IMG/VR virus record: IMGVR_UViG_2713896903_000005
DNA from: a virus
Lineage: Duplodnaviria; Heunggongvirae; Uroviricota; Caudoviricetes
Length of the DNA: 40,276 nucleotides
Direction: 5' to 3' (one strand)
Under the pieces are notes generated by a model that was given only the letters and a program-made list of their open reading frames with translations, ran no database searches and had not been told where the DNA came from. This document shows, in pieces, positions 4,966-36,923 of this stretch. Every line of letters begins with the position of its first letter. The stretch's first letter is position 1. Position numbers and translations under genes: made by a program.

Positions 4966-5166
4966 ATGGAAATCATTACACGTATTGATGCCGCAAAGCG
5001 CGGGCTTAAACGCTACTACACCGGAAAACCATGTAAGCACGGACATGACAGTGAACGCTGGGTTTACAACGGACACTGTGTTGAGTGCACCATGGAATCA
5101 AACCGTCGCATCAGGGCAGAGATTAAGCAGATCATGATTAATTCCTCCCCACAACATTCAAGCTGA
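4966..5166 (+). CDS. small zinc-ribbon protein (66 aa), function unknown
   Basis: CKHGH...CVEC motif; internal ATG at 4966 chosen over the TTG at 4903; in the position of cII-like genes but without obvious HTH. Confidence 0.45.
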   Translation: MEIITRIDAAKRGLKRYYTGKPCKHGHDSERWVYNGHCVECTMESNRRIRAEIKQIMINSSPQHSS

Positions 5167-5181
5167 TAGCGGAGATTAATC

Positions 5182-7302: not shown

Positions 7303-7923
7303 ATGGAAAGTAATATCAAAGGGTTAGTTTCCGCCGGGCATGAGATGGCTTCGGAACTAAAAGCAGAATGTGGTGCCGTTGATATGCGCAGTGTGGCAAA
7401 GCTGATCAGCGATTTGGCAACGCAACTGGAAGTGCAACTGGTGCGTGCTAATGCGCTGGCCGAAGACCACCAGAGAGCGATTGAGTCAATTAAGCAGGCT
7501 GATGCAGCTGTTAAGTTGGCACACGAGAAGTTTTCGGCGCTGGCTGCGGAGAATGCGGCGCTGAAGTCTGCACACCCTCAGCAATTCGGTCAGAAAATGA
7601 TGGATGCATTGGTTGCATATGAGGAATGCCAGGACGATGTACCAGAAAGAGGAATGCTTAATGCGTTCTTCATCCTTCGTGACAGTGTTTGCATTGACAC
7701 TCCTGCTACTGGCGCTTTCCTGGCTGAAGTGCGGGCGCAGGGGGTGGATGCTGCTATAGAAGCTGCAAAAAATCTGGTGGCCCAAGAATATGAGTATAAG
7801 GATTTCAAAGCGGCGCAGAGTGATTGCTGTATGCACCTTGGTTCAGACCTGGTAGGGAAGGTTGAAATGACTGAGTGGTTAGTTGACTTTGCTGCCCAGC
7901 TTCGCAAAGGAGGCAACCAGTGA
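7303..7923 (+). CDS. hypothetical protein, possibly Ea22-like
   Basis: 206 aa, helix-rich; position and composition resemble ead/Ea22-like lambdoid accessory proteins; weak. Confidence 0.4.
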   Translation: MESNIKGLVSAGHEMASELKAECGAVDMRSVAKLISDLATQLEVQLVRANALAEDHQRAIESIKQADAAVKLAHEKFSALAAENAALKSAHPQQFGQKMMDALVAYEECQDDVPERGMLNAFFILRDSVCIDTPATGAFLAEVRAQGVDAAIEAAKNLVAQEYEYKDFKAAQSDCCMHLGSDLVGKVEMTEWLVDFAAQLRKGGNQ

Positions 7924-8726
7924 GCAAGATTGACTATCAGGCACTGCGTGAGGCGGCAGAGCGTGCAATTCCGGCAATGGAACGCCTGTTAATGTTGCCA
8001 GTTGATGATGATCTGATAAGCGAACAGGAACTTAAAGATAGCGGTGTTGATATTGATGCCCTCAACGCCTTCAAATTTCTGGCCGGACCAGAAACCGTGC
8101 TGGCACTACTGGATGAGATCAACGCATTAGAGGAAACGCGTATCAACGATGTTTGCCGTATTGCGGAACTAACAAAACAACTGGAGTTGGCAAAATCAAA
8201 ACTCAACGAGCAGCGTGAGTATTACGAAGGTGTTATCTCGGATGGGAGTAAGCGCATAGCAGAGTTGCAGACAAAATCTGCACCAGATTCATTTGGCATC
8301 ATCGGTGAAAATATTCGAACACAGGATAATCGAATAACGTCAGAACCTATGTTTTGTGTGTATCAAAAGCGCGAAATCGTTGTTGATTCTGATTATGACT
8401 ATGACCGGATTGTCTGGGTTGATGAAGATGGCAATGAAGCCAATAAACGCCAAAGTCGTCGTCTCGAACTACTTCACGAAAACTTTCGAGAGCCACCAGA
8501 AAAATGGCGGCGCGTTGCTGTGAAAGATATTGATGAATTCGTTACCTGCTGTTTCACCGAACAGGGTTGTAAAGACTACCTGGCAGCCAATGGTCACAAT
8601 CTTCGCTTGCCATTTATATATGTAAAAAACGGTTTCAGGAACGCTGAATATATCGGCATAAGAAACTGGCTTGCTGGCATTCGCATCAAAGGAGACGCAG
8701 GAGAGCAAAACGATGAAAAACCGTAA
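7920..8726 (+). CDS. ead/Ea22-like family protein
   Basis: 268 aa; N-terminus MSKIDYQALREAAERA typical of Ea22-like proteins; GTG start with strong SD (AAAGGAGG), GTGA overlap with the upstream gene. Confidence 0.5.
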   Translation: MSKIDYQALREAAERAIPAMERLLMLPVDDDLISEQELKDSGVDIDALNAFKFLAGPETVLALLDEINALEETRINDVCRIAELTKQLELAKSKLNEQREYYEGVISDGSKRIAELQTKSAPDSFGIIGENIRTQDNRITSEPMFCVYQKREIVVDSDYDYDRIVWVDEDGNEANKRQSRRLELLHENFREPPEKWRRVAVKDIDEFVTCCFTEQGCKDYLAANGHNLRLPFIYVKNGFRNAEYIGIRNWLAGIRIKGDAGEQNDEKP

Positions 8727-8889
8727 AGCAAAATTACTTCTTTTATCGCGTTCGACGGGGTACGAGAAGCTACCAATCAGCAATCACAAACGGGCGGTGA
8801 TCGGCATGTTTGGTAGGGTGGTATTCGCATTTAACTATAAAACCACCGCGTCGCGTAACAGACGAGAGAAGGGGTACGCAGTGCGATGA
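8713..8889 (+). CDS. small basic ORF (58 aa), hypothetical
   Basis: Begins MKNRKAK inside the 3' end of the Ea22-like gene; its first 25 bp recur as a direct repeat at the next ORF. Confidence 0.25.
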   Translation: MKNRKAKLLLLSRSTGYEKLPISNHKRAVIGMFGRVVFAFNYKTTASRNRREKGYAVR

Positions 8890-13274: not shown

Positions 13275-13351
13275 TGGCGTGGCATGCAGGATTCGAACCT
13301 GCGACCAACCGCTTAGAAGGCGGTTGCTCTGTCCAGCTGAGCTAATGCCAC
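13275..13351 (-). tRNA. tRNA-Arg (anticodon UCU)
   Basis: 77-nt cloverleaf read by hand on the minus strand: acceptor GTGGCAT/ATGCCAC, D-stem GCTC/GAGC, anticodon stem ACCGC/GCGGT with loop CTTCTAA, T-stem GCAGG/CCTGC with loop TTCGAAT, discriminator G, encoded CCA. Confidence 0.85.
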
Positions 13352-22420: not shown

Positions 22421-22995
22421 TGTGCGATCCGGTTATTGCTGGTGGCGCAATGCTCGCCATGAGTGGCATTCAGGCATACACCCAGTACCAACAGGGAAAG
22501 TATGCCTCGAAGGTTGCAGAAGCGAACGCAGATATAGCCACTGCTCAGGCAAATGATGCAATAAACAGAGGTAACGCTGAAGCTGAGCAACGGCGCAGAG
22601 AGACCCGACAGCGGCTTGGTACACAAGCGGCGACAATGGGGGCGACCGGTGCTGATTTATCTACCGGTAACGCGCTGGATATATTTGGCGACACTGCCCA
22701 GTTTGGCGCTCTTGATTCTCTGACGACGGTGAATAACGCGCAACGCGAGGATTACGGTTATCAGGTTCAGGCTGCCAACTATAAAGCAGAAGCCAGTTCA
22801 GCCCGTAAACAGGGGAATGTGGGAGCAGCAACAACATTGCTCACTGCGCCTCTGAAGGCATACGGTGCGTACCAGATGTTTGGTGGGACGTGGAGTCCGT
22901 TCTCTAAAGGAAGTACATCTGGTGGTGGGACGCCAATGTTATCTAACTCAGGTTTTATGAATTCTGACTCCCGATTCAAAATAGGAGGTTACTGA
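22420..22995 (+). CDS. internal virion protein (gp14-like), tentative
   Basis: 191 aa; Ala/Gln-rich with MC... N-terminus, reminiscent of T7 gp14-type proteins. Confidence 0.4.
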   Translation: MCDPVIAGGAMLAMSGIQAYTQYQQGKYASKVAEANADIATAQANDAINRGNAEAEQRRRETRQRLGTQAATMGATGADLSTGNALDIFGDTAQFGALDSLTTVNNAQREDYGYQVQAANYKAEASSARKQGNVGAATTLLTAPLKAYGAYQMFGGTWSPFSKGSTSGGGTPMLSNSGFMNSDSRFKIGGY

Positions 22996-25616
22996 TGCCA
23001 GTCGTACCAACAGTATCCGGACGTCAGGTTGAGAGTCGTGGAGTTCAGTCAGCAGGCTTGCAGACGTTTTCTCAGCCAGGTATTGGTGATGCTTTTGTTC
23101 GGGCAGGGACAGAGGCAATTGATGTTCTGGGTCAGGAAAAACAGCGTGCCAATATTGCCTTGGTTCAGGAGGCATCCCTTAAACTCAGTCAGACAGGCAG
23201 CGATCTGCTGAATAACCCTGAAACAGGTTTGCTTAACCTGAAAGGGAAAAATGCTATTGGAAAAGGTCAGGAGTATACGCAGCAGTTTGATGCTCAGGTC
23301 GAACAACTGGCTATGTCGCTGCCGGATGAACAGGCTCGTAATGCTTTCATGCAGCAGGCGCAGCAGCAGCGTATTCAGTTCACTACGCAGGCCGGGAGGT
23401 ACGAAATAGGACAGGTTCGCCAGTATGAGGCGAATATGCAGGATGCGACACTAAAAAACCTATCGATGCAGTTCCGTAACCCGACAATGGCAAACCAGGC
23501 AGGATTGAAGGCATATCATAGCATCATCGCTTACGGCGAAGCCCACGGCCAGAGTCAAGAAGAGATCGAACAGAACTGGGTTTCGTGGCGCGAGAATGCC
23601 GCGAACGGTGCGGCGGAGGCGTGGTATGTGCCGATGTATCAACAGATGATGGGGCCGAACGGCAAGATTGAGGTAACCGATACACCGAGTGAGGCGCAGT
23701 TATTCTCTGCAATAATCTGGCAGGAGAGTGGCGGAAATCAGTACGGAAAGGACGGAACACCTCTGGTGTCGCCAAAAGGCGCTGTTGGCGTAGCGCAGGT
23801 GACGGAAGATACTGGCCCCGAAGCTGCCCGCCTTGCTGGTGTGCCGTGGGACCGAGATAAATGGTTGAATGACCCGCGCTATAATGCCCGCTTGGGGCAA
23901 GCTTATTTCGGCGCGCAGATGAAGAAATACGACAATAACCCGGTTCTGGCAGTAGCTGCCTATAACGCTGGCCCAGGAAAGGTTGACGGCTGGATTAAAC
24001 AGATTGGCGATCCGCGCACAGGCGAAGTCAGTAACGCCCAGTTTGCCGCAGCTATCCCATACGACGAGACGCGCAATTATGTGGCAAAAGTAACTGGCAG
24101 TGCTGGAGCTATTCCTGGATCTGCGACGATGGAAAACCTCATCGCACAGCCATTCTGGAACGCCATGAGTCCGGACAAAAAGTCGCAGATGATGAGCAAG
24201 GTTGCTGGCATGTACGACATGCAGGCTTCAGCCGGTCGCGTTGCGCTACAGAGTCGAATGCAGGACGACCTATCCAAAATTGAGGCCGGTAAGCAGGTGA
24301 CGCCTATTTCAGCGCACGAATGGGCCGCCGTTATGCCGCTTCAGGCAGCGCCTGCCGAGCGCCTGCAGATGGAAAAAACCTTCCAGCAATACCAGCAGGC
24401 AATGACGCTACAACCTGTTTATCAGACCATTATGCAGGGCAACGTCCAGCAGGGTACCGCCGCCGTGCAGGCAATGGCACCGCAGGAAAACGACCCTGAC
24501 TTTAAATACAAAGCCGAGCTTTATGCATCGGCAAAGGTCAAGCTTGGGCAGGTACTGAAGGCGCGGGAAGCGGATCCGGGGGCGTGGCTGCAACAAAACT
24601 CTCCGGTTGTGCAGGCTGCATTCCAGCAGTACCTCAATGACCCTTCATCTGGTGAATACCTAGTTTCCCGCATACAGTCTGAAAAAGACCGCTTGGGGAT
24701 AATGAGCAAAAAAGTTTTACCGGAGTCCATGGTCAACGACGTACTGCAGCGTATTGACAACACGCAGGAATCTAGCGTAAAGGCCATTCAGTCGGTGGCG
24801 CAGTCGTTCGGCAAATACTCGGACCAGGTGATGCGGCAGGTGCAAAATAAAGCATTCCCAGCTTTAAAGGTTGTAATGTCTACAGAAAACCAACGGGCAG
24901 CAGATGCGTTGTGGCAAATACGGAATGTACCTACTTCTGATTTGAGATCTGGCTTGGATAAAAACCAGGCAGACAGTGCAGACTCATCGTGGACAGATCA
25001 ATTTAAAGATTTTTCTTCAACTCTTATTCCTCAGAGAAATGGTGCTGAAAACTGGACTATTTATAACGAGCAGGGAAAACGCTTGACCTACAACTACATG
25101 CAGCGCGGAATGTCGGCGTCTGATGCAGCAAAACAGGCGTATCAGGACCTTCTCGGCGAGCAGTACCAGACCAATGGCACTTGGCGGCTACCTAATCGTG
25201 CAGGGATAGATATTCGTGACGTTAACGATGGTGCCAATGCGTATCTGAAAAACCTGTCAGCAGATCAGATTATGCCGCTTATTGGTGACCCAAGGCTACC
25301 TGATGAGGTCAACCGTGAGCAGAGTATCTCCCGCATTCGTGATAATGCGCAGTGGGTTACCAACAGCGACGAAACAGGACTTACCCTGATGCTCAACGGG
25401 CTGATCGTCAACGGTGCCGACGGCAACCCGATTACGGTGACGTTCAACGATCTGGCGAAACTGGGAACAACCAACCGATCAGTATGGAACAGCATTACCA
25501 AGTTCATTGATACTCCGGTGAAATATACTCCCGGACAGTCTAAGGAATACAGCGCAGAAAGTCAGCGCGACAACCTGATTAACATTTTCCAGAACGGCCA
25601 GCAATCAGGACGATAA
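22995..25616 (+). CDS. internal virion protein with lytic transglycosylase (SLT) domain
   Basis: 873 aa; SLT-like motifs IIWQESGGNQY...GAVGVAQV...AYNAGPG at about residues 235-330; SD GGAGG. Confidence 0.7.
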   Translation: MPVVPTVSGRQVESRGVQSAGLQTFSQPGIGDAFVRAGTEAIDVLGQEKQRANIALVQEASLKLSQTGSDLLNNPETGLLNLKGKNAIGKGQEYTQQFDAQVEQLAMSLPDEQARNAFMQQAQQQRIQFTTQAGRYEIGQVRQYEANMQDATLKNLSMQFRNPTMANQAGLKAYHSIIAYGEAHGQSQEEIEQNWVSWRENAANGAAEAWYVPMYQQMMGPNGKIEVTDTPSEAQLFSAIIWQESGGNQYGKDGTPLVSPKGAVGVAQVTEDTGPEAARLAGVPWDRDKWLNDPRYNARLGQAYFGAQMKKYDNNPVLAVAAYNAGPGKVDGWIKQIGDPRTGEVSNAQFAAAIPYDETRNYVAKVTGSAGAIPGSATMENLIAQPFWNAMSPDKKSQMMSKVAGMYDMQASAGRVALQSRMQDDLSKIEAGKQVTPISAHEWAAVMPLQAAPAERLQMEKTFQQYQQAMTLQPVYQTIMQGNVQQGTAAVQAMAPQENDPDFKYKAELYASAKVKLGQVLKAREADPGAWLQQNSPVVQAAFQQYLNDPSSGEYLVSRIQSEKDRLGIMSKKVLPESMVNDVLQRIDNTQESSVKAIQSVAQSFGKYSDQVMRQVQNKAFPALKVVMSTENQRAADALWQIRNVPTSDLRSGLDKNQADSADSSWTDQFKDFSSTLIPQRNGAENWTIYNEQGKRLTYNYMQRGMSASDAAKQAYQDLLGEQYQTNGTWRLPNRAGIDIRDVNDGANAYLKNLSADQIMPLIGDPRLPDEVNREQSISRIRDNAQWVTNSDETGLTLMLNGLIVNGADGNPITVTFNDLAKLGTTNRSVWNSITKFIDTPVKYTPGQSKEYSAESQRDNLINIFQNGQQSGR

Positions 25617-25617
25617 C

Positions 25618-27315
25618 ATGCCAATTTACACAGATGATCCGGGACAGGGAATTAACCAGCCAATTGGCAACGCGCCAGCAGGGCTTGGCGAATCGCTGCT
25701 TTCTTCCCTTAAGCAGGGATTTGAAGAGGGGCCGGTCATGTCCGGCTACCGCTTTGCGCAGGCCGACTCGCTGGCGAATGACCCAAACTCTACAGTTATC
25801 AGTAAGCAGGAAGCGGATGAGCTCCTGAAGCAGTACGGCGTAAAGAGCATAAACGTGCCAGATTCTGGCGTTACGCAGGCTTTTCTCGATCATGTTATTG
25901 CCGAACGCAAAGATTCTCTGGCACGCCAGCAGATCGCGATGTCGGCACCGAGCGGATGGGTAGCCACGCCGCTTAATTTCGCAGCCAGCCTAGCTGGTTC
26001 AATGGCAGATCCTGGTAACGTGGCGCTGGCGCTGGTTCCGTTCGCTGGAGAAGCAAAGGCGGCTTCTGTGCTTGGCCGATTTGGCGAGCGATTTGTTGCT
26101 GGTGCACGCATGGGGGCAGCGCAGGCGGTGGTGACCGTGCCGCTTACCGGGCTGGCAGCGGCGGCGGAAGGTGACGACTTCACCTATAGCAACGCGTTGG
26201 AAAGTACTTTCTTTAACACGATGGCTGGCGGTCTAATGCATGCCGGCGGCGGCCTTATCGCCGATATCGTGCGACCGCGTCGCGTTCCCGATGCTGCAAC
26301 GGGAGAGTCCCCGGCGTTTTCTGGCGATGCGCAGCCAACCCCGGTGATAACGCCTGACAACATTCCGGCGGGCGTGAATATCCCTGAGGTTGGCGCTAAC
26401 GCAGATCTGGCGGCTGCCATTTCCAGTGAAGCGGAGAGCTACGCATACAGCCGGGCTTATGACGACGTGGTTCCTGACTATATGGCGCGCCAGCAGGAGT
26501 TACAGAGCGGGCAGATCGGTAACGTTGCCGACCTGCGTGCCGAGCTTGCGGCTAATCAACGTCATGCTGACTCTCTTGATGCGACGCTGCAGCAGCGCAC
26601 CAAAAAGTATCAGGGGCAGCGGATGAAGTTTAAGGATGCGCGCTCTAGGGCACTGAAAGAGATTCAGGCCGAGAAAGACGCCATCGCTGCACGCAATCAG
26701 GAGATCAACACATCGCTGGAGCAGAACGCGACAGCAGAGCAGGCGCGCTGGCGCCAGTCTCAGATTTCCCGCGGCGAGATCCCCGACGACCTGAAAGTCA
26801 CCATTTCCGAGCGTGCGCAGCAGATCCTGGACGGCATGCAGATGTCGCCGGTCGCTGGCGCAGTTCGCACTGCCGCAAGCGCCATCAGGGATGCTGACTG
26901 GAGCGTGAACCAGCAGGCGTATCGCGCTGCGCTGGCACACATGATGGAAGGACGTAGCCCAGATGTTGAGCCCTTCTATGAACTGCACAAACCGGCACTG
27001 CGTGAACGCGCCATCCATCGCATACAGAACCCGGCACGGCAGGTTGATGAAACGGCTCGCCCAGCAAGCGAAACAGCCGATCGGGTTTATCAAGAAACGC
27101 AAAAGGCAGATCATGAAATTACCGCTGCCGCTGCAGACCTTGATAACGAGCTCAACCTGAGTAACGCCCTGCTTGACGATATCGCTGTCGATAACCCTGA
27201 TCTTGCGACCACGTTGCGCCAGAAACTCAATGATATTCGTGCAGACGCCAGCGACAATAGCATGAGCAACGCTTTCCGGGCATTTGCCGCCTGTATGATT
27301 AACCGGGGGATGTGA
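25618..27315 (+). CDS. internal virion / ejection protein
   Basis: 565 aa, Ala-rich, between the SLT protein and a large ejection protein. Confidence 0.45.
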   Translation: MPIYTDDPGQGINQPIGNAPAGLGESLLSSLKQGFEEGPVMSGYRFAQADSLANDPNSTVISKQEADELLKQYGVKSINVPDSGVTQAFLDHVIAERKDSLARQQIAMSAPSGWVATPLNFAASLAGSMADPGNVALALVPFAGEAKAASVLGRFGERFVAGARMGAAQAVVTVPLTGLAAAAEGDDFTYSNALESTFFNTMAGGLMHAGGGLIADIVRPRRVPDAATGESPAFSGDAQPTPVITPDNIPAGVNIPEVGANADLAAAISSEAESYAYSRAYDDVVPDYMARQQELQSGQIGNVADLRAELAANQRHADSLDATLQQRTKKYQGQRMKFKDARSRALKEIQAEKDAIAARNQEINTSLEQNATAEQARWRQSQISRGEIPDDLKVTISERAQQILDGMQMSPVAGAVRTAASAIRDADWSVNQQAYRAALAHMMEGRSPDVEPFYELHKPALRERAIHRIQNPARQVDETARPASETADRVYQETQKADHEITAAAADLDNELNLSNALLDDIAVDNPDLATTLRQKLNDIRADASDNSMSNAFRAFAACMINRGM

Positions 27316-29864
27316 TGGCAGCAAACGAATTTTTGACGCAGTGCGAGCGCAGTGTAAATGCTGCCGCTGGTCGCGAGCTTTCTTCCGATGAGATGGAGTC
27401 GCTGGTGCGTGACATGAACGACACCACTAGGCGAATTCTGGCGACCAATGAGGCGCTGTCTCTGGAAGAGGCCGCTATGCGCGCAGCGGAAGAACTGGGC
27501 AATGCCGATATGCTGGCAAAACAGATTGAGGCTCGCAATAAGGCAATCAACACCCGTATTGCCGCACAACGACTTAGAGAGCTTCGTACTATCTGGAAAG
27601 ACCGCCCGGATATCGGGCTTGAAGCAATGCTGGTTGGCCGCAACGATGCGCGTACCGGCGCCCGCCGGTCGGTATCTTCGGAGGTGGCGCAACTGCGCGG
27701 CAAGTATCATTCCGGTATCAACTACGATTTTGACCGTGCCGGGCTGGTGCAATTCATCGCCAGCGGCAGCAATGACAGGGAAATTGCCGATGCAATGTGG
27801 CGCATAGGGCGCGGGCAGTCAACTGACGGTATGACAAAGCAATCCGTAAGCGCTGCACAAATCATCATGAAATGGCAGGAAACTGCGCGCATTGATGAGA
27901 ACCGCGCCGGGGCATGGATACGCAAAGAGCCGGGCTATATAGTGCGCCAGTCACACTACATCATGAAGATCCGCGCCGCAGGTTATGAAGCATGGCGAAA
28001 TGCTATTCTCCCGCGCCTTGATGAGCGCACTTTTGACGGCGTGGCTGACCGCGAGCAGTTCATGCGTAACATTTATAACGGGCTGGCTTCCGGCGTGCAT
28101 CTTACATCTGAAAAGCCAGATTGGATGAATGGCTTTAAGGGATTGGCGAACGCAGCTAAACGCGCCAGCCAAGAGCGAATTTTGCACTTCAAAGATGGTA
28201 TCTCGTGGCACGAGTACAACCAGCAATTCGGCACCGGCAGCCTGCGAGAGGCGCTGTTTGGTGGCTTAAACAGCGCTGCCCGCACAACGGGCATGATGCG
28301 CGTACTGGGCACTAACCCACAGAACATGTTTAAGTACCTGACGGACACCATTGCTGAAGATATCAGCAAATCCGGAAGACCGGCAGCGTTGGCTGACTAC
28401 ATGACGAAGGTGCGTCGCATTAACCGTACCGTAATGCCGCAGGTTGACGGCTCGCTAAATATTCCTGGCAGCGTAGGCTGGGCCAATGCGTCGGCGGCTG
28501 TACGCGGCTGGTTGCGTATGAGCCAGCTTGGTGGCGCGGTAATCTCATCGTTTAACGACGTGCCTATCGCCGCTACCGAGATGCGCTACCAAGGGCAGAA
28601 TTTTATGCAGGCGTTGCTTGGTGCTATGAGAGGCCGCTTAACGCGTTACAACAGCGCGGAGCAGAAAGAGATCCTTTCCTCTATCGGAGTTTATTCCGAC
28701 TCCATGACGCAGGAAATCATCCGGCGCATATCTGGTGATGACACGCTGAATGGAAAACTTGGTCGCGCGCAGCAGCTTTTCTTTAAGTACAACCTCATGA
28801 ACTTCTGGACCGAGAGCGGTCGTAACAGCAACGCCATGATGATAACCAACTGGCTTGCAAAGAATGCTGACCAGTCTCATGCGCGGCTACCGGAAGACCT
28901 GCGACGCGTGCTGGATCTGCACGGTATTGGCGAACGTGAGTGGGAAATTTTTCGCAACATGGACATGGCCGATAGCGAAGGTCGTAAGTTCATGACGACC
29001 AGCGGCATCCGCGGCGTGCCTGACGAAGTGATTGCCGGTTATGTAGAGAGTAAGGGGATCAAACCAACGCAGCGCGCTATCGCTGACGCACGCGATCAAT
29101 TGGAAGGGCAGTTGCGCGGCTACATCCTTGACCGCCTGAATATCGCCATGTCAGAGCCTGGCGATCGCACGCAGGCGTTTATGAAGATGGGCACGGTGCC
29201 AGGAACGGTGGCTGGGGAAGCAATACGATTCGCTGGTCAGTACAAATCGTTCACTGCAAGCTTCATGCAGAACGTACTAGGACGCGAAGTATTCGGGCGT
29301 GGTTATATTCCTGCTGGGCTTGGTGAGTCGAAAACCGGATCGCTGACGAATGCGCTGCTACGTAACGGGAAGGGGGCTTTCCTTGGTGCTGCAAATCTCT
29401 TTGTCTGGGCGACTATGTTTGGTTATATCTCCATGCAGTCAAAACTCATGCTGAAAGGGCAAACACCACGCCCGGCAGATGCCAAGACGTTTCTCGCAGC
29501 CGCATCTCAGGGGGGCGGTCTTGGCATCTTGGGTGACTTCATGTTTGGCGAGGTCAACCGCATGGGGGCCGGGCCGGTTACGTCGCTAATGGGGCCAGCA
29601 GCATCGAACGCTGACAGCATTATCACGCTGCTCCAGCAGACCACGAGAGGGGATGCAGATTTGGGTGACTGGTATCGCACGGCACTTGACAATACGCCAT
29701 TCCTCAACGTGTTCTGGCTTCGTACGGCGATGAATGGTTTAATATTGAACCGGATACAAGATGCCCTTGACCCAGGCTCTCTTGAGCGTTATCAGCGCCG
29801 TGTTGAGCGTGAACAGGGTAACGACTTTCTGATCCCACCATCGCAGTTCATGCTAGGGAAGTAA
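27315..29864 (+). CDS. large internal virion / ejection protein
   Basis: About 850 aa; ATG at 27315 overlaps the upstream stop (ORF-track GTG at 27312); hydrophobic segment near the C-terminus consistent with membrane insertion during ejection. Confidence 0.45.
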   Translation: MAANEFLTQCERSVNAAAGRELSSDEMESLVRDMNDTTRRILATNEALSLEEAAMRAAEELGNADMLAKQIEARNKAINTRIAAQRLRELRTIWKDRPDIGLEAMLVGRNDARTGARRSVSSEVAQLRGKYHSGINYDFDRAGLVQFIASGSNDREIADAMWRIGRGQSTDGMTKQSVSAAQIIMKWQETARIDENRAGAWIRKEPGYIVRQSHYIMKIRAAGYEAWRNAILPRLDERTFDGVADREQFMRNIYNGLASGVHLTSEKPDWMNGFKGLANAAKRASQERILHFKDGISWHEYNQQFGTGSLREALFGGLNSAARTTGMMRVLGTNPQNMFKYLTDTIAEDISKSGRPAALADYMTKVRRINRTVMPQVDGSLNIPGSVGWANASAAVRGWLRMSQLGGAVISSFNDVPIAATEMRYQGQNFMQALLGAMRGRLTRYNSAEQKEILSSIGVYSDSMTQEIIRRISGDDTLNGKLGRAQQLFFKYNLMNFWTESGRNSNAMMITNWLAKNADQSHARLPEDLRRVLDLHGIGEREWEIFRNMDMADSEGRKFMTTSGIRGVPDEVIAGYVESKGIKPTQRAIADARDQLEGQLRGYILDRLNIAMSEPGDRTQAFMKMGTVPGTVAGEAIRFAGQYKSFTASFMQNVLGREVFGRGYIPAGLGESKTGSLTNALLRNGKGAFLGAANLFVWATMFGYISMQSKLMLKGQTPRPADAKTFLAAASQGGGLGILGDFMFGEVNRMGAGPVTSLMGPAASNADSIITLLQQTTRGDADLGDWYRTALDNTPFLNVFWLRTAMNGLILNRIQDALDPGSLERYQRRVEREQGNDFLIPPSQFMLGK

Positions 29865-30804: not shown

Positions 30805-30830
30805 CACAAAAAAGCCCGCGGCGCGGGCTA
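30805..30830 (-). terminator. intrinsic terminator ending the leftward antirepressor operon
   Basis: Minus strand: GCCCGCG-C-CGCGGGC hairpin followed by TTTTTTGTGG. Confidence 0.6.
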
Positions 30831-31343
30831 TTCTTCATCTTGATTATTTTTATTTGGTCTGTCGTTTCTACCAAGAATAAATACAGAAGCCAAACCAATT
30901 AGATCAACAGTTATTAATGTACCAGCAAATACTGTATCACCGTTCCAAGCAAAAAGAGTGGCAATAGCAAGAATAAGAATTGTGACAGTGAAAGCCATCC
31001 ACTGACCGCGCTTATCTTTATATATTGCACCAGACATAGCCATATATTCCATGCTATGACGATGAGCCTGTTCCTTTTCGCTCCTGACCATTATTCTTTC
31101 GGCTCCGTTATCTACGATTTCGTTGTATTCACGGAGCATTGATGGTGGAGGCAGAGGTCCGCTAAAAGAACTCTTCTTTACAATCGCCATGAACTGAGGC
31201 CGTTCAAGTAAGCGTTGGAGAATGGCTGGGTTTTCAACCAACTCTCCTTCGATTTCCTTGACCTTTTCCTCAGTTACCTTTTCCTGCTCATCACCGGGCT
31301 GTGGCAAGCTGACGTCTTGCTTTTCTTGCACGCAGTCGCTCAT
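30828..31343 (-). CDS. DUF2335-like membrane protein
   Basis: 171 aa; soluble N-terminal region with PPPSMLREYNEIVDNGAERIMVRSEKEQAHRH followed by two C-terminal transmembrane helices. Confidence 0.5.
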   Translation of the reverse strand: MSDCVQEKQDVSLPQPGDEQEKVTEEKVKEIEGELVENPAILQRLLERPQFMAIVKKSSFSGPLPPPSMLREYNEIVDNGAERIMVRSEKEQAHRHSMEYMAMSGAIYKDKRGQWMAFTVTILILAIATLFAWNGDTVFAGTLITVDLIGLASVFILGRNDRPNKNNQDEE

Positions 31344-31506
31344 ATGGCCTCATACTTATCCTTAAGTCATCACCTACAGCCTGAAAGTCATTTCTTATTG
31401 ACTCTGCATCTGAATTACTAGATAGCAGCTTTGTATAATCTGTAGATGGAACCAAATCCAAGATACTACCTGCTGCACGCATAATCCTGCGGGTTGAGCG
31501 CAACAT
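31291..31506 (-). CDS. hypothetical small protein (71 aa)
   Basis: Strong SD AGGAGGT 5 nt before the ATG at 31506; 3' end overlaps the start of the DUF2335-like gene by about 50 nt in another frame. Confidence 0.35.
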   Translation of the reverse strand: MLRSTRRIMRAAGSILDLVPSTDYTKLLSSNSDAESIRNDFQAVGDDLRISMRPYERLRARKARRQLATAR

Positions 31507-31565
31507 ATCGTACCTCCTATTTAACCAAAGGCTTAATTACCTTTGGAGTAAACTTAATTAAAAAA

Positions 31566-31775
31566 CTACTTCCTTACAGTGGCAAGATCCTGTTTAACAA
31601 TTGCAGCAGCGAGACGACGCATCTCCTTAACTTCAGGAAGCTCAGAAATTTGCTGTGATGAAATATATACACCACCACGCTTGTTAACCTGCGCTGACGC
31701 CGGAACTTCTGCATTTTTTGCCTGAGGGCTGAGTGCATTATCCCTCGTTTTTGTACGAGCGGACCAAAATCCCAT
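31566..31775 (-). CDS. hypothetical small protein (69 aa)
   Basis: Strong SD GAGGAGGAG before the ATG at 31775; promoter-like TTGCAG-17-TACTAT upstream with an operator-like palindrome over the start site. Confidence 0.45.
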   Translation of the reverse strand: MGFWSARTKTRDNALSPQAKNAEVPASAQVNKRGGVYISSQQISELPEVKEMRRLAAAIVKQDLATVRK

Positions 31776-31801
31776 ATCTCCTCCTCATGTAAACACATGG
31801 T

Positions 31802-31816
31802 TTACCTTTAGGGTAA
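31802..31816. promoter_or_regulatory. operator-like palindrome TTACCTTTAGGGTAA
   Basis: Perfect site immediately downstream of a minus-strand -10-like TACTAT (31822..31817). Confidence 0.5.
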
Positions 31817-31888
31817 TAGTACGCTATTCACCCCCAGTCTGCAATCTGTACAGAATTATTTAAAGGCACATCCCTGTGCCGCCGCCCG

Positions 31889-32599
31889 TCAGAAGAACCC
31901 TGCCTTGTCGTTGATGTACTCCGCGTGCGTCTGGATATCACGCAGGCATTTGCTCACACCAACGATGTAGCAGAACATGGTGGTCAGCTCCGCCGCCGCG
32001 CCCGATACGTCGTGCCCGTCGTCCTGCAACTGGTTTAGCAGATTCATCAGCAGTGAGTTCTCCGTCAGGCCGAGAACACCAGACGGCGAGTGAATCAGGC
32101 TGCGGTAGCCGGGCTTCAGCGGGGCGCTGTAGGTTTTGTTCTCTATCTTCATTGCCTGCATCACTGCTGACGCCGTGGCGTTGGCTACCTGGTCGGCAAC
32201 CATCTTTATGCGTTCTTCCTGCGGGAGCGAGTTTTTAATGTAACTTCCGGTGCGGCGGATCTGAGGAAGTACCTCACCTGTAACCCATTTACGAAAGCGG
32301 TAGGGGATAGTGCCTGGTGTCACTGCGTCGCGGCAGCGGAGGATCAGTGTGTAGAGGCCTGACTCGGAGATGATGTTGATCTCTTTTACTCGGCGGTCAA
32401 AAATTACACGATGTTCATGCCCTATGTTGAACATAGACCTTTCATCATCATCCAGTTTTTCAAGTGCTTGGGTGACGTTTTGGATACGCAGCGCACTACA
32501 AACGTCTTGGGCTACAAACCATGGTTGGCCATCGATAATGATGGAACGGATAGGGTTAACAGATTCAAATTTGAAGATGGCAGTTTGAGCATTAGCCAT
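31889..32599 (-). CDS. Bro-N domain antirepressor
   Basis: N-terminal Bro-N-like segment (FKFESVNPIRSIIIDGQPWFVAQDVCSAL); C-terminal domain shared with the short 33748..34005 product; ATG at 32599 with SD GGAG (ORF-track start 32614). Confidence 0.65.
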   Translation of the reverse strand: MANAQTAIFKFESVNPIRSIIIDGQPWFVAQDVCSALRIQNVTQALEKLDDDERSMFNIGHEHRVIFDRRVKEINIISESGLYTLILRCRDAVTPGTIPYRFRKWVTGEVLPQIRRTGSYIKNSLPQEERIKMVADQVANATASAVMQAMKIENKTYSAPLKPGYRSLIHSPSGVLGLTENSLLMNLLNQLQDDGHDVSGAAAELTTMFCYIVGVSKCLRDIQTHAEYINDKAGFF

Positions 32600-32753
32600 G
32601 GTGGTTATCTCCACTTAGTGATTTTAATCACCACCGCAACGCCAATTACTGGTGGTGAACTGGACAAGGTTGGCGTACCGGCCTAAGTGGTACCGGCGTC
32701 CTTTCGGACCCCTGCCCAGCCCACCATAATTCGGATATAGCTGTGCTTAACGC

Positions 32754-32777
32754 ATAAAAAAACCACGTCTGGCGTGG
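32754..32777 (-). terminator. intrinsic terminator or attenuator inside the antirepressor leader
   Basis: Minus strand: CCACG-CCAGA-CGTGG hairpin followed by TTTTTTTAT, about 150 nt upstream of the Bro-N start. Confidence 0.5.
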
Positions 32778-32868
32778 TATGCGCCACTTAGTAACTCGGG
32801 ACGCCAATCCCGGCACTGGATTTTGCCAGTGCCCGATTACTATGGCACAAGAGGAGTGCTATGTAAAT

Positions 32869-32883
32869 TTACCGCAAAGGTAA
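32869..32883. promoter_or_regulatory. operator-like palindrome TTACCGCAAAGGTAA
   Basis: Perfect site overlapping the predicted start site of a minus-strand promoter (-35 TTGATT, -10 TTATCA region, about 32890..32918). Confidence 0.5.
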
Positions 32884-32961
32884 TGATAAACGCGAAGAAA
32901 TATTAAAATCAACCGTATTTGGTTGATTGCGTTTAACGCTTGATCACCTGAAAGCAAGATA

Positions 32962-32976
32962 TTACCTTTAAGGTAA
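32962..32976. promoter_or_regulatory. operator-like palindrome TTACCTTTAAGGTAA
   Basis: Perfect site 20 nt upstream of the 32997 start codon. Confidence 0.5.
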
Positions 32977-32996
32977 TGTTATTGTGAGGAAAAGCA

Positions 32997-33725
32997 ATGG
33001 AAGTTTTCTGGATAGTTGTTGGTGTGGTTGCGGTGATTATTTACGTTATCAACCAGAACAAGACTAAGATCTCTGATCGTACGGTCGTTAATCATAACAA
33101 AACGATAAAGACCGAAGATGGGGAGATAACGATTAATCGTACACAGGTGATAGAACACACCTCCACTCAGTTTCAAAAAACGGGAGATAATGCGCCTAAT
33201 ATTTCCGTACCTCCTGCTTATGATAGCGCGGTAATCCAGACATATTATAAACAGCAGGAGTTAGCAAAAGAGAGGCAACTGATTCAGCCAAAGCCATTTA
33301 CAGCAGAGCTTCCACCTGGAGTGTCAACGCGTCCGGCATATCATGGAAGATTCCCTGGTGATGACGTATCGTCTCAGTCACCTAAAAAAGCACCTCAGGC
33401 AGTATCAGAGCCAGCAAGAATACCTTCTGTATCGCCGTCAAAAGAAGAATCAGCTAACGAAGTTTCAAGTGCCCGCAAGCAGTGTTTGCGATGCAGAATA
33501 AACCTTCCATATGAAAAATTCAGGAAATCGTCAAAAAATCCAGATGGATTGACTAAGTGGTGTGCAAGGTGTCTAGATGGCCCAAAGAATACACGTCATA
33601 TGAAGTGGTGCCCAATTTGTAATGTCCGCAGAAAACGAACCAGCTTTTACCCTAATAATCAAAATGCGGACGGCTTAATGGCATGGTGCAAAACGTGCTG
33701 GGATGAGCACAAAGCGAAACGATAG
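32997..33725 (+). CDS. membrane-anchored protein with duplicated Cys-rich zinc-ribbon-like motifs
   Basis: 242 aa; N-terminal transmembrane helix (FWIVVGVVAVIIYVI), Pro/Ser-rich linker, two C-terminal repeats (CLRCR...DGLTKWCARC and CPIC...DGLMAWCKTC); AT-rich. Confidence 0.5.
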   Translation: MEVFWIVVGVVAVIIYVINQNKTKISDRTVVNHNKTIKTEDGEITINRTQVIEHTSTQFQKTGDNAPNISVPPAYDSAVIQTYYKQQELAKERQLIQPKPFTAELPPGVSTRPAYHGRFPGDDVSSQSPKKAPQAVSEPARIPSVSPSKEESANEVSSARKQCLRCRINLPYEKFRKSSKNPDGLTKWCARCLDGPKNTRHMKWCPICNVRRKRTSFYPNNQNADGLMAWCKTCWDEHKAKR

Positions 33726-33750
33726 GCCGCTCTTGCGGCCTTTAAATTTA
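33725..33750. terminator. terminator hairpin between convergent genes
   Basis: GGCCGC-TCTT-GCGGCC hairpin followed by TTTAAATTT on the plus strand and a T-rich run on the minus strand. Confidence 0.55.
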
Positions 33751-34005
33751 CCGGGTTTGTTTTCGTAATTGTTCGGCACAATAGTCGAGATGTGTTTGCA
33801 GATCCTGCATAGACATCTGCGAGCTGGTGACGTAGTTAATCAGTGCAGTCAGTTCGGCAAGTGGGCCATCGACATTAAATCCATCCTTATCGAGATCCCG
33901 GAGTAATTTCATCAAGTGCGATCCCTCCACCAGTGACCTGACGCCTCCCGGCGTGTGAATCCTTTCGGTAAATCCGTCTTCCAGTGGATAGTGATACTGC
34001 TGCAT
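33748..34005 (-). CDS. short antirepressor-like protein, probably SOS-regulated
   Basis: About 85 aa from the ATG at 34005 (SD GGAGAAG); matches the C-terminal domain of the Bro-N antirepressor (TPGGVRSLVEGSHLMKLLRDLDKDGFNVDGPLAELT vs SPSGVLGLTENSLLMNLLNQLQDDGHDVSGAAAELT); a LexA box lies 20-40 nt upstream. Confidence 0.5.
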   Translation of the reverse strand: MQQYHYPLEDGFTERIHTPGGVRSLVEGSHLMKLLRDLDKDGFNVDGPLAELTALINYVTSSQMSMQDLQTHLDYCAEQLRKQTR

Positions 34006-34024
34006 CTTATCTTCTCCATGCAAT

Positions 34025-34044
34025 AACTGTATATTTATACAGTA
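34025..34044. promoter_or_regulatory. LexA (SOS) box
   Basis: AACTGTATATTTATACAGTA matches the CTGT-N8-ACAG consensus with an AT-rich spacer; overlaps the promoter region of the short antirepressor gene. Confidence 0.7.
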
Positions 34045-34081
34045 GCAAATAATTTGTTTGCTATCCAGCACGTTTTGCAAA

Positions 34082-34096
34082 TTACCTGAAAGGTAA
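34082..34096. promoter_or_regulatory. operator-like palindrome TTACCTGAAAGGTAA
   Basis: Perfect site between the antirepressor gene and the tailspike gene. Confidence 0.5.
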
Positions 34097-34200
34097 TATC
34101 TATTCGTATTTATGGGTTATCTATCCATATATGATTTTTAAGGTAATAGAATAACCGGATATGCGGCGCAACGGGTGCTGCGACTATCTGGAGATTTAAC

Positions 34201-36111
34201 ATGACGGTCTCAACAGAAGTTGACCACAACGAATATACAGGTAACGGTGTTACAACTACGTTCCCTTATACCTTTAGGATTTTCCAGAAATCTGATCTGG
34301 TAGTACAAGTGGTTGACCTTGATGAAAATATCACAGTTCTTGCTCTTGATACTGATTACACAGTTACCGGGGCGGGAGGGTATAACGGTGGTAATGTAAT
34401 TCTGTCGAAGGCGTTGGCTAACGGTTATCAGATTTCTATGTATCGAGAGCTACCGGTTACGCAGGAAACCGATCTGCGCAATCAGGGTAAGTTCTTTGCA
34501 GAGGTGCATGAGGATGCGTTTGATAAGCTAACGATGCTGATCCAGCAGGTTCGCAGTTTGTTTACCTTGGCGCTTCGCAAGCCATCATTCGTGGCAAACT
34601 ATTATGATGCTTTGAATAATTACATCCGTAATCTTCGTGACCCGTCTCATCCTCAGGATGCAGCCACCAAGAATTATGTAGATACGCTGGCCAACGGAAA
34701 CCTAAACAGGGTGCTAAGAGTTCCAGAAGCATCCATACCTTCTCTTCCTGACGTTAATGGAAGGAGAAATAAAGCATTAAGTTTTGATGCATCTGGTAAC
34801 CCCTTGCTTTTAGATCCTGCAGGCAGTGGATTATGGGGATATGTTCTTATCGATTCGTTCCAGGCTGGAGCAAAAATATCAACCCGTTACGAAGCATTGC
34901 ATTGGCCTCTTCCTGATGGGGATGGTGAATATTATCGTTGGGATGGAGTATTGCCTAAGGAAGTCCCTGCAGGATCAACCCCTGACTCAACTGGTGGAAT
35001 AGGAATTGGGGCGTGGGTTGGTATAGGTGATGCATCATTAAGATCTGACTTGGCAGATAATCTAATCCCAGGAGCAAGCTTGGTATCAATACATTCTGGG
35101 ACGGTTAACGATGCTCTTGTGTATAACACTCCAGAAATGTTTGGCGCGCGACCAGACGGTTCTGTAGATGCATCTTCAGCTATTATTGCAGCAGGAAAGG
35201 ATGGCATTGGTAGTTATGGTGTAAATAAAGTTCTCCTCACAGGAGGTTCAGAAAGAACATTTGATATACAGTCTGATACAAATTCTCTTATCCTGTCATT
35301 CGGAAGACCATTTATTAATGGTATGGGAAATGGTGAGATAATCGATGTAAGAAGAACGATAAATCGCCCTATTAATAATAAAGGCCATTCTTCTTATCTT
35401 ATAGCTCACCGTGGGTATGTGAATGTACATGCTGAAAATACGGTCGCATCAATTAGTCTTGCGGCAAAATCTTGCCATGCTGTAGAGGTTGATGTTCAGA
35501 CCACATCTGACGGTCGATATGTTGTTTTTCATGACTTTACCACTGGTAATTTAATGAATAATGATCTAACTGTAGCAACATCAACCCTAGAACAACTTCA
35601 GGCATTAAAATATAAGAAAATGATTGGTACAAAATATGAGTACCATTGCAGGATTCCTACATTTGAGCAAGTTCTTGACGCTTGCCGTAGAACAGGCACT
35701 GAAATTTGGTGGGAGATTATGTCAACCAATACACCAGATCAAGTTGATGGTATGATACAGGCCGTCATTGATTATGGAATGGAACACAATGCTGTTTGCA
35801 CCACCGGAGTAGTATCTAACTTATATCTTCTCCGCAATAAATCTGAAGATATGAGAGTTCAATTAACTTCATCCAGCGCGACCCCCGATGAAACAGTGAA
35901 AGATATGGTTCGTCATCTTCGCCATATTGGTAATGGAACTCTTGCAATTGAGTATATTGACATGACAAACAGGCCATGGATACCTGAATATTGTTACCAA
36001 CGAGGCGTGGATATTGTTGTTTACACATTGTTTGCGTCTTATCAGGCGGTTCAAGCAAGAAACATCGGGATTCGGCAGATCATGTGTAACCAACAAGTAG
36101 GAGTTGAATAA
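34201..36111 (+). CDS. tailspike with C-terminal glycerophosphodiester phosphodiesterase (GDPD)-like domain
   Basis: N-terminus (NEYTGNGVTTTFPYTFRIF) matches the conserved particle-binding domain of podovirus tail fibres and tailspikes; C-terminal region carries GDPD-type motifs (IAHRG...ENT...VEVDV...DGRYVVFHD, later RIPTFEQVL...EIWWEI); SD GGAG. Confidence 0.7.
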   Translation: MTVSTEVDHNEYTGNGVTTTFPYTFRIFQKSDLVVQVVDLDENITVLALDTDYTVTGAGGYNGGNVILSKALANGYQISMYRELPVTQETDLRNQGKFFAEVHEDAFDKLTMLIQQVRSLFTLALRKPSFVANYYDALNNYIRNLRDPSHPQDAATKNYVDTLANGNLNRVLRVPEASIPSLPDVNGRRNKALSFDASGNPLLLDPAGSGLWGYVLIDSFQAGAKISTRYEALHWPLPDGDGEYYRWDGVLPKEVPAGSTPDSTGGIGIGAWVGIGDASLRSDLADNLIPGASLVSIHSGTVNDALVYNTPEMFGARPDGSVDASSAIIAAGKDGIGSYGVNKVLLTGGSERTFDIQSDTNSLILSFGRPFINGMGNGEIIDVRRTINRPINNKGHSSYLIAHRGYVNVHAENTVASISLAAKSCHAVEVDVQTTSDGRYVVFHDFTTGNLMNNDLTVATSTLEQLQALKYKKMIGTKYEYHCRIPTFEQVLDACRRTGTEIWWEIMSTNTPDQVDGMIQAVIDYGMEHNAVCTTGVVSNLYLLRNKSEDMRVQLTSSSATPDETVKDMVRHLRHIGNGTLAIEYIDMTNRPWIPEYCYQRGVDIVVYTLFASYQAVQARNIGIRQIMCNQQVGVE

Positions 36112-36923
36112 TGAATATTTCAAGAATGGGGTGGAAACATTACGTAACCTCTGGAACTGGTACAATAAATATCAGTGAAGATAGAGAAACTTTATACATG
36201 TCTGCAAGCGCTGGGCTAACAACTTTAGCAACAACGGAAATTGTTGCTGATGCTGAGAGTGAAATTGAGGTGACATTCGAGGCTAGATATATAGCCAATT
36301 CAATCACAGGTACTGATTATGCGATTTGTGGTATTTATTATTTTGGATTTCAGAACGAGAACGGTGGTGGTTTAGGTAACAGCTTCTCGGAGTTGCGCAT
36401 AACATCTAACGAGCTACAAACATATACGGCGAAATTGATTGTGCCAGCTACTAAAAACGAACTTAATTCTAATAGAATTGAGATCAGGTTTAATATTCCT
36501 AACAATGCTGACGGTTCTCTTTATGTTATTGGATATCCACGGGTGTCTATTAAGCGTTCTGCAATTGGGGTTTCGAGAATTATCGCAAAAGGTATCATAG
36601 ATCTCGTTCAGAATTCCGGCTCTGATGAAGTAGTTGTTAAGTTAATTAGTTGTAACAATGTTTCCAATGTTACGATGACATCAAGTAATCAAAATGTAGA
36701 AATAAATCTTGAAAGTTTTCCGAGAATTTACCCGGAAACGCCAATGTTTACCGCTACGATGATTCCGCAGGGAGATGAAGTTCCTGGAATGTATCAGCCC
36801 TTATATTTAACGTTTGATGCAAAAAGCAAAAAACTAACAATGGCATTTAAAAATGCATCTGGATCACGAATTGCAATATATCAAGCAAGACATCTGCGGT
36901 TTAACTTCACAATAACAATCTGA
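36111..36923 (+). CDS. hypothetical protein translationally coupled to the tailspike
   Basis: 270 aa; TAATG stop/start overlap with the tailspike gene and SD AGGAG; AT-rich, beta-rich. Confidence 0.45.
   Translation: MNISRMGWKHYVTSGTGTINISEDRETLYMSASAGLTTLATTEIVADAESEIEVTFEARYIANSITGTDYAICGIYYFGFQNENGGGLGNSFSELRITSNELQTYTAKLIVPATKNELNSNRIEIRFNIPNNADGSLYVIGYPRVSIKRSAIGVSRIIAKGIIDLVQNSGSDEVVVKLISCNNVSNVTMTSSNQNVEINLESFPRIYPETPMFTATMIPQGDEVPGMYQPLYLTFDAKSKKLTMAFKNASGSRIAIYQARHLRFNFTITI

Follow-up and report, generated by a model that had tools for sequence, protein, structure and literature searches.

How does a temperate phage leave the prophage state when its repressor carries no self-cleavage domain, and what do two antirepressor genes lying close together contribute to that decision? 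These questions are raised by the virus record IMGVR_UViG_2713896903_000005, a stretch of 40,276 nucleotides (the whole of which is called the window in what follows) that by its sequence is an epsilon15/phiV10-like (Uetakevirus) temperate podophage of Escherichia coli. Its repressor gene is 99–100% identical to the counterparts in phages TL-2011b, HEMP4, ZX5 and phiV10, and the interval 31500..34300, in which both antirepressor genes lie, shares 92–97% identity with the same phages. We read this region as probably being an induction module in which two antirepressors, a short protein (Ant) and a larger Bro-N protein, are aimed at one non-cleavable repressor (Rep). The argument turns first on the following features.

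3846..4430, minus strand: Rep, the immunity repressor (194 amino acids), presumed target of both antirepressors
33748..34005, minus strand: short ant (85 amino acids), with its ATG at 34005 and the Shine-Dalgarno sequence GGAG
34025..34044: LexA (SOS) box AACTGTATATTTATACAGTA, about 20 nt upstream of the short ant ATG
34081..34097: perfect operator ATTACCTGAAAGGTAAT, abutting the –35-like TTGCAA (34080..34075, minus strand) of the short ant promoter
31889..32599, minus strand: large antirepressor (236 amino acids), with a Bro-N domain (residues 17–112), a linker and a C-terminal Ant-like domain (about residues 155–231)

A phmmer comparison of Rep with the sequences of the PDB returned 5D50_A, entered as 'Repressor' (E-value 3.5e-42), and 5D4Z_A, a Rep C-terminal domain (E-value 3.6e-20). 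The Rep and Ant proteins of Salmonella phage SPC32H have been co-crystallised as 5D50, 5D4Z is the C-terminal domain of that Rep, and the rep of SPC32H has 42.7% identity to the window protein by tblastn. The Pfam content of the window Rep consists of HTH_3 and HTH_26 only, with no S24 peptidase domain, which upholds the statement in the initial annotation that the repressor is devoid of a LexA-like autocleavage domain. When the short Ant was compared with all PDB sequences, a single entry was matched, 5D50_E, 'Anti-repressor protein' (E-value 4.1e-47, residues 2–84), and tblastn gave 88% identity to the annotated ant of SPC32H (KC911856). The short gene, proposed earlier to encode an antirepressor, is on this evidence the orthologue of SPC32H ant.

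Upstream of the short gene a near-consensus LexA box had been proposed. The box matches the E. coli consensus TACTGTATATATATACAGTA at 18 of 20 positions and is the sole site in the window within three mismatches of it, while 100 shuffles yielded none; among the four CTGT-N8-ACAG sites of the window, it alone has an 8-nt spacer made entirely of A and T. Alignment showed that the order of elements (operator ATTACC-N5-GGTAAT, TTGCA(A/T), LexA box, GGAG, ATG) is common to the window, SPC32H, phiV10, Tyrion and the Klebsiella phages, and that the operator at 34081..34097 keeps its position in each of them; the proposed box is thus unique in the window and collinear with that of SPC32H. In 75 of 80 related IMG/VR loci, a CTGT-N8-ACAG box lies at most 80 nt upstream of short ant. 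All the sequence-level features that define an SPC32H-type small, LexA-controlled Ant are present, and the short ant gene is assigned to that type. Rep and Ant occur in essentially the same set of about 35 phage records. Between this phage and SPC32H, Ant is far more conserved than its target (88% against 43% identity for Rep), which hints that Ant recognises a conserved surface of Rep and could act across immunity types.

The operator next to the short ant promoter belongs to a dispersed set. The palindrome ATTACC-N5-GGTAAT occurs, within two mismatches, at 17 sites in the window against 1.04 expected. Because a cluster of these sites lies in the rep-cro intergenic region, the sequence evidence identifies the palindrome as the immunity operator of the prophage itself, that is, the operator of Rep. 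Besides the site at 34081..34097, those that concern us here are listed below, and further copies precede several transcription units.

4485..4550: between rep and cro, a cluster of three operator-like sequences, ATTACCCAACAGGTAAA, a GGTAAC half-site and GTTACCTTATGGGTGAA, found by sequence reading and pattern search
32868..32884: one-mismatch operator ATTACC-N5-GGTAAA, directly abutting the –35 (TTTACA) of the promoter of isrK, a small RNA gene described below
32961..32977: perfect operator ATTACCTTTAAGGTAAT, 20 bp upstream of the ATG of orf242 and 93 bp from the operator of the isrK promoter
31801..31817: one-mismatch operator, found by pattern search

The operator at the isrK promoter keeps both its half-sites and its position in all seven aligned leaders, including those with a different spacer and a Rep that has only 45% identity. 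This site is the operator-like palindrome that had been remarked on at the Bro-N gene, now recognised as a Rep operator abutting the –35 of the isrK promoter. Operators are often paired (3711/3773, 6816/6878, 10504/10522 and 32868/32961), and two of the pairs are spaced exactly 62 bp from start to start. Since the Rep of SPC32H binds DNA as a tetramer, this pairing suggests, by analogy, an arrangement that would suit a Rep tetramer seated on two palindromes.

What, then, links the Bro-N protein to the same repressor? Pfam assigned its Bro-N domain with an E-value of 1.6e-19. The pairwise alignment that the initial annotation had asked for bore out its claim that the two C-terminal regions are homologous: by BLASTP, the short Ant and residues 155–228 of the Bro-N protein share 31 of 74 residues (42%) without a gap (E-value 2e-15). 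The only PDB match of the Bro-N protein was again 5D50_E, over residues 155–231 (E-value 2.2e-13), and the best PHROG family for both proteins was phrog_450, carried in PHROGs as 'unknown function' (Bro-N protein residues 153–234, E-value 6.5e-36). A word-indexed homologue search with the short Ant recovered close stand-alone relatives only, and the fusions were seen through an exhaustive profile search of 1.84 billion cluster representatives, in which the Ant-domain family had just 62 members. These are either stand-alone proteins of about 85 amino acids or C-terminal domains, the latter following Bro-N, AntA, Phage_pRha (Rha) or ORF6N N-domains. TL-2011b adds a further arrangement, with an Ant-like C-domain also on a P22_AR_N-type (P22-Ant-like) antirepressor whose gene is adjoined by a sar RNA. 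This third antirepressor of TL-2011b (7777..8721, minus strand, 314 amino acids, with an Rfam sar match at 8723..8790) has a C-domain 88% identical to the Ant-like domain of the Bro-N protein, despite unrelated N-domains. A gene of the P22_AR_N type was present in 18 of the 80 IMG/VR relatives and absent from the window. As the same C-domain sits on such varied antirepressor N-domains, the Ant domain appears to be a portable module directed at Rep, and we infer from the sequences that the fused form would bind Rep as well.

The shared C-domain could instead be a tetramerisation or scaffold module and nothing more. The Bro-N protein would then owe its function to the KilA-N-like, DNA-binding Bro-N domain, might for instance regulate transcription or replication, and would make no contact with Rep. 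The Ant of SPC32H is itself a tetramer (PMC9638917), so that some of the conserved residues could serve self-assembly; the columns invariant across short and fused forms number only 17, and Bro-N proteins are functionally heterogeneous (PMC7313666). We nevertheless hold a scaffold role to be improbable. The family is very small and within the phage collection is restricted to genomes that have a Rep homologue too, five different N-domains, each of a kind typical of antirepressors, are found joined to the domain, and in TL-2011b near-identical C-domains were found on large antirepressors with unrelated N-domains. Taken together, these observations point to selection on a phage-specific partner.

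We further analysed the sequence between the isrK promoter (P_isrK) and the Bro-N gene, where the following elements were found.

32839..32867, minus strand: P_isrK, a sigma-70-type promoter from a promoter scan, with TTTACA, a 17-nt spacer and a TG-extended CATAGT; predicted start at about 32832
32756..32832, minus strand: isrK RNA (Rfam RF01394; 67.2 bits, gathering score 50)
32778..32762, minus strand: intrinsic terminator of isrK
32807..32801 and 32791..32784: copies of the C4 target within isrK, a1 = TTGGCGT and b1 = CTAAGTGG, respectively
32648..32731, minus strand: C4-type antisense RNA (Rfam RF01695; 66 bits, gathering score 45), 48 nt upstream of the Bro-N ATG
32690..32683 and 32676..32670: the loop of C4, b' = CCACUUAG, and its single-stranded tail, a' = ACGCCAA
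32611..32645, minus strand: C4 target in the Bro-N leader, with a2 = TTGGCGT (32645..32639) and b2 = CTAAGTGG (32618..32611)

The start predicted from P_isrK is the first base of the isrK match in Rfam. The loop and tail of C4 are the complement of a bipartite sequence, UUGGCGU...CUAAGUGG, of which the transcript carries two copies, one in isrK and one in the Bro-N leader, and in the leader copy b2 overlaps the Shine-Dalgarno sequence of the Bro-N gene (GGAG, 32612..32609), 9 nt before the ATG at 32599. In DNA form, the bipartite pattern TTGGCGT...CTAAGTGG was found three times in the window against none expected, the third occurrence being the plus strand opposite a' and b' of C4. A fourth copy of the CTAAGTGG octamer, in orf242 (33553..33560, plus strand), is within chance expectation. 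With isrK and C4 both above their Rfam gathering scores and a z-score of –4.9 for the fold of the leader, the earlier description of the Bro-N leader as structured is well founded.

To this complementarity was added a comparison of 90 C4 copies from 78 related sources. Across them, the C4 loop falls into at least four types (CCACUUAG, CCUUUUAG, CCUUUGUAG and CCGUUUAG) and the tail into three (ACGCCAA, AGACCAA and GUCUCAA), which occur in several combinations; whichever combination is present, the two targets are complementary to it, with G-U pairing at a few of the isrK sites. C4, the isrK target and the leader target thus co-vary three ways. Each of the six relatives with a Bro-N gene has an isrK and a C4 ahead of it, and neither RNA is found in SPC32H, which is without the gene. 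Because the palindrome is a Rep operator and the leader consists of isrK and C4, the Bro-N gene appears from its sequence to be under the control of Rep and RNA, rather than that of a regulator yet to be named. A coupled upstream open reading frame (ORF) of the icd/orf45 type was considered and rejected, as the AUG at 32728 opens a frame of only 14 codons, with its stop at 32684 inside C4; the window has no ORF between C4 and the Bro-N ATG.

The same wiring is open to another interpretation, in which the Bro-N antirepressor serves during infection as an anti-immunity factor, in the sense of P22 Ant or P1 Ant, rather than in induction. An incoming genome would express it for a short time, until C4 and Rep have built up, and the protein would inactivate the Rep of any related prophage already resident or tip the choice between lysis and lysogeny; in the established lysogen, Rep and C4 together would silence it completely. 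A repressor operator at the promoter combined with a C4 RNA is the wiring of P1 immI, and the C4 specificity types reassort among near-identical phages, as expected of a heteroimmunity determinant. The phiV10 gene is annotated 'putative anti-immunity protein', the stronger conservation of Ant than of Rep relative to SPC32H is compatible with action across immunity types, and cross-acting antirepressors have been documented (PMC3121763). Set against this, isrK-anrP of Gifsy-1 contributes to induction in stationary phase (PMC4825925), and the anti-immunity and induction roles can coexist. An exclusively anti-immunity function therefore seems to us unlikely, though a serious contender, and an induction module remains the reading that we develop here.

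How widely the second unit is kept bears on whether it has a role in the switch at all. The Salmonella members of the group (SPC32H, epsilon15 and SPN1S) have short ant only, without isrK or C4, whereas the E. coli, Enterobacter and Klebsiella members carry short ant, isrK, C4 and the Bro-N gene in a co-oriented tandem. Among the 80 IMG/VR loci with a Bro-N-type C-domain, 76 have short ant within 3 kb. The isrK-C4-Bro-N stretch was matched in 475 of 5426 complete E. coli genomes (~9%), and the isrK-C4 leader cassette is detectable by DNA similarity in 257 phage records, many of them Shiga toxin (Stx) phages. From its absence in the Salmonella clade and the frameshift in phiV10, one might take the cassette for a dispensable, horizontally shuffled passenger with no role in the switch and possibly in decay, the more so as it is flanked by variable inserts such as orf242 and shares its leader with unrelated Stx and APSE phages. 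This we regard as very improbable. An intact Bro-N gene is found not only here but in hundreds of E. coli prophages, with 98–100% protein identity, the three-way RNA complementarity has been kept through several switches of specificity, and the Rep operator has been retained at the promoter, which argues for purifying selection on a working circuit.

The induction module that we propose would operate as two units. In the first, LexA on the box at 34025..34044 and Rep on the operator abutting the –35 would keep Ant off. DNA damage would remove LexA so that Ant is made, and tetrameric Ant would bind Rep dimers and take the Rep tetramer off its operators, as for the SPC32H orthologue. In a review, the Rep of SPC32H is described as inactivated by LexA-controlled Ant (PMC7380047), and the discussion of a further paper has the tetrameric Ant binding two Rep dimers (PMC9638917). 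By analogy with SPC32H, it is very likely that this first unit, in which LexA and Rep control the small Ant, serves as an SOS trigger.

In the second unit, the promoter flanked by a Rep operator would transcribe isrK, and read-through of the isrK terminator would yield C4 and the Bro-N mRNA. The loop and tail of C4 would pair with the bipartite site over the Bro-N Shine-Dalgarno sequence and block translation, while the a1/b1 copy in isrK would compete for C4. In the lysogen, the second unit would accordingly be held off twice, by Rep at P_isrK and by C4 on the ribosome-binding site. Once the small Ant has removed Rep, P_isrK would fire, a surplus of isrK and leader over C4 would allow the large antirepressor to be translated, and this protein would then reinforce the inactivation of Rep in a positive feedback. 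Alternatively, the second unit could answer SOS-independent cues, as isrK does in Gifsy-1, or act on incoming or resident related phages. That it provides a second antirepressor against the same Rep, as a reinforcing or an alternative input, is to our mind somewhat more probable than otherwise. Homologies, sites, RNA families and the covariation of the three RNA elements are read directly from the sequences; the binding of Rep by the Bro-N C-domain, repression by Rep at the abutting operator and the order of events are all inferred. That two signals feed into induction, as the initial annotation had suggested, is plausible, with GfoA and AnrP of Gifsy-1 as the precedent.

Several observations weigh against this scheme. 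The C-domain of the Bro-N protein is only 42% identical to Ant, and the link between the Bro-N protein and Rep is drawn from homology. In the AlphaFold2 model of the monomer, the Bro-N domain is confident, while the predicted local distance difference test score (pLDDT) of the Ant-like domain is below 50, so that its fold is not independently confirmed, and we relied on the sequence homology to 5D50_E. Such a low pLDDT may be expected of a domain that is tetrameric and complexed in 5D50. The isrK-C4-Bro-N cassette is dispensable, because SPC32H and epsilon15 do without it (there the switch works with Ant alone) and the C-domain of phiV10 is frameshifted. In phiV10 (4571..5250) the frameshift lies inside the Ant-like domain and the gene is annotated as PhiV10p23 and p22; its large antirepressor is probably inactive. 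At the short ant promoter, the consensus promoter scan found no clear or acceptable –10, and the overlap of the LexA box with this promoter is placed by position and by collinearity with SPC32H only. An operator centred just upstream of a –35 could in principle activate instead of repress, and it is by analogy with Gifsy-1 that we take the isrK terminator to be read through. Lastly, domain sharing between paired antirepressors was rejected as a general rule, since AnrP and GfoA of Gifsy-1 have no similarity (E-value 8.2).

To what extent is this system already known? Its core is the already characterised SPC32H system. Kim & Ryu 2013 (J Virol 87:11775) and Kim et al. 2016 (PNAS 113:E2480) reportedly found that the Rep of SPC32H is not cleaved upon SOS and is inactivated by a LexA-repressed Ant, a tetramer of which is said to bind two Rep dimers and dismantle the DNA-binding Rep tetramer. 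In common with SPC32H, the window has an Ant orthologue, a Rep homologue without an autocleavage domain, a collinear series of operator, LexA box, Shine-Dalgarno sequence and ATG, and an ant gene that follows the internal-virion genes and reads away from the tailspike gene. It differs in that the two Rep proteins are only about 43% identical, and in that SPC32H is without the isrK-C4-Bro-N cassette and orf242. The initial annotation had named the Gifsy and Fels prophages as the precedent for LexA-controlled antirepressors acting on non-cleavable repressors; the analogy of two antirepressors stands, but the closest precedent is SPC32H, in view of the conservation of Ant, the match of Rep to 5D50 and the collinear control region.

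For the second unit, the order in P1 and P7 immI is said to be a promoter, P51, with the C1 operator Op51, then a1b1, the c4 RNA, a2b2/icd and ant (Citron & Schuster 1990; Biere et al. 1992). The logic of P1 c4 has been described in PMC7313666. The Bro-N unit resembles immI in having a C4 RNA (RF01695) in the antirepressor leader, a' and b' complementary to an upstream and a downstream target, a downstream target that covers the ribosome-binding site, specificity that switches by co-variation, and an operator of the primary repressor at the promoter; the 17 operators here are dispersed round the genome as the C1 operators of P1 are. Unlike immI, it has no icd-like coupled ORF, and C4 targets the Shine-Dalgarno sequence of the antirepressor itself; the protein consists of Bro-N and the SPC32H Ant domain, the only domains detected with Pfam and the PDB, and is, as far as tested, unrelated to P1 Ant1/2; the host element is a podovirus, and the upstream target is embedded in a terminated small RNA, isrK.

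In an Rfam run on the Gifsy-1 prophage, the order was likewise isrK with its terminator, a C4-like RNA and the antirepressor, and the calls for isrK, C4 and c4-a1b1 (RF03163, 'a1, b1 targets of C4') were overlapping or adjacent (34131..34329 of the Gifsy-1 sequence), from which the orf45/STnc1160 region corresponds to the C4-type RNA and isrK to the a1/b1 target copy. There, the short IsrK switches on AnrP translation and has a part in induction (Hershko-Shalev et al., 2016, PMC4825925). Gifsy-1 also has a separate small antirepressor, GfoA, which is LexA-controlled (Lemire et al., 2011, PMC3121763) and acts on a non-cleavable repressor, so that there too two antirepressors are under different control. 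The differences are that AnrP has an ORF6N N-domain, that the repressor families are not the same, that the two units of Gifsy-1 are about 3 kb apart with no tandem beside the tailspike gene, and that the reading frame of orf45 has not been kept in the window, where the equivalent AUG opens only 14 codons. The Bro-N unit thus seems to work like P1 immI and Gifsy-1 isrK-anrP, and is a variant rather than P1 immI in the strict sense, since there is no icd/orf45 equivalent and the protein is another. APSE (PMC7313666) and the Stx phages are alike in that an isrK and c4 cassette precedes a Bro-N or antirepressor gene; they have other repressors, and their proteins are not known to carry the SPC32H Ant domain.

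The module had also been called immI-like as in P22. With respect to position this is correct. As in P22, an accessory antirepressor locus outside the main immunity region lies between the genes for ejection or internal proteins and the tailspike gene, and the placement given in the initial annotation is confirmed by the flanking genes.

22995..29864: genes for large internal-virion/ejection-type proteins, upstream of the module
34201..36111, plus strand: tail fibre/spike gene, downstream of the module

With respect to wiring it is not. P22-type control was rejected, as Rfam found no sar RNA in the window and Pfam no Arc or Mnt match in the neighbouring small ORFs; in addition, the P22 repressor is RecA-cleavable and P22 Ant has different domains. 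Every claim of the initial annotation that could be checked held, and the analysis refines it in three ways, namely the SPC32H precedent, the P1/Gifsy-1 wiring and the identity of the operator.

The module is interrupted and bordered by further genes and elements.

32997..33725, plus strand: orf242 (242 amino acids), inserted between the two antirepressor units on the opposite strand
33724..33741: GC-rich hairpin between the stop codons of short ant and orf242, which converge here; resembles a terminator on the plus strand
30828..31775, minus strand: transcription unit downstream of the Bro-N gene, preceded by the operator at 31801..31817

The orf242 product matched phrog_6762 (E-value 7.5e-148; in PHROGs of unknown function) and has a hydrophobic segment at its N-terminus and a cysteine-rich C-terminus with repeated Cys-x2-Cys, where weak matches to Stc1 (Pfam) and to an endonuclease-VII zinc finger were seen. 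The gene is present in 28 of the 80 related IMG/VR loci, and in TL-2011b it also lies between both units; it is absent from ZX5, Tyrion and the Klebsiella phages, in which isrK comes directly after short ant. We do not count orf242 as part of the switch, and it may be a Rep-controlled moron. The unit at 30828..31775 comprises a 69-amino-acid ORF (phrog_5739), a 71-amino-acid ORF and a DUF2335 membrane protein of 171 amino acids (PHROGs class: moron). Between the short ant operator and the start of the tail fibre gene, at 34130..34160, lies a conserved minus-strand element, TTCTATTACC...ATATG.AT, which contains an operator half-site and recurs in every relative, SPC32H among them; the element may belong to the tail fibre promoter or offer Rep a second contact. 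The N-terminal part of the tail fibre/spike protein is of the conserved Uetakevirus type, and its C-terminal domain (residues 403–627) is a glycerophosphodiester phosphodiesterase (GDPD; E-value 3e-22). As a receptor-degrading domain this is unusual, and it suggests that the receptor is a surface polysaccharide with phosphodiester linkages. The ORF that follows (36111..36923, plus strand, 270 amino acids) had no PHROG match. Elsewhere, the phage carries a tRNA-Arg with the anticodon UCU (13275..13351, minus strand).

The locus therefore brings known systems into a new combination, and its modestly new aspect is that a single Ant domain, defined by structure, is common to antirepressors with different wiring. 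On a more tentative and, in our judgement, doubtful view, the SPC32H Ant fold would be a portable 'Rep-disassembly' domain placed under up to three control circuits per Uetakevirus-type genome: LexA for the stand-alone Ant, C4/isrK for the Bro-N fusion and sar for the P22_AR_N fusion of TL-2011b. SOS, RNA-level immunity or timing, and superinfection would then all converge on one repressor, and isrK would be a built-in decoy for C4 that gives an RNA-gated, positive-feedback burst of the large antirepressor. If true, this would supply a structure-based rule for 'anti-repressor' annotations, with an N-terminal delivery domain and a C-terminal, repressor-specific warhead.

Current understanding is not overturned by these results; two known systems are extended and shown combined. 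The Ant domain gives a concrete partner, Rep, to a class of genes usually annotated by the N-terminal domain, and the co-variation of C4, isrK and leader offers natural specificity variants for the joint gating of antirepressor translation, a point left open in the Gifsy-1 work. Roughly 9% of complete E. coli genomes, O157 and O103 strains among them, carry a prophage of the type whose induction the module governs, and phiV10-like phages alter the O-antigen of their O157 and O103 carriers.

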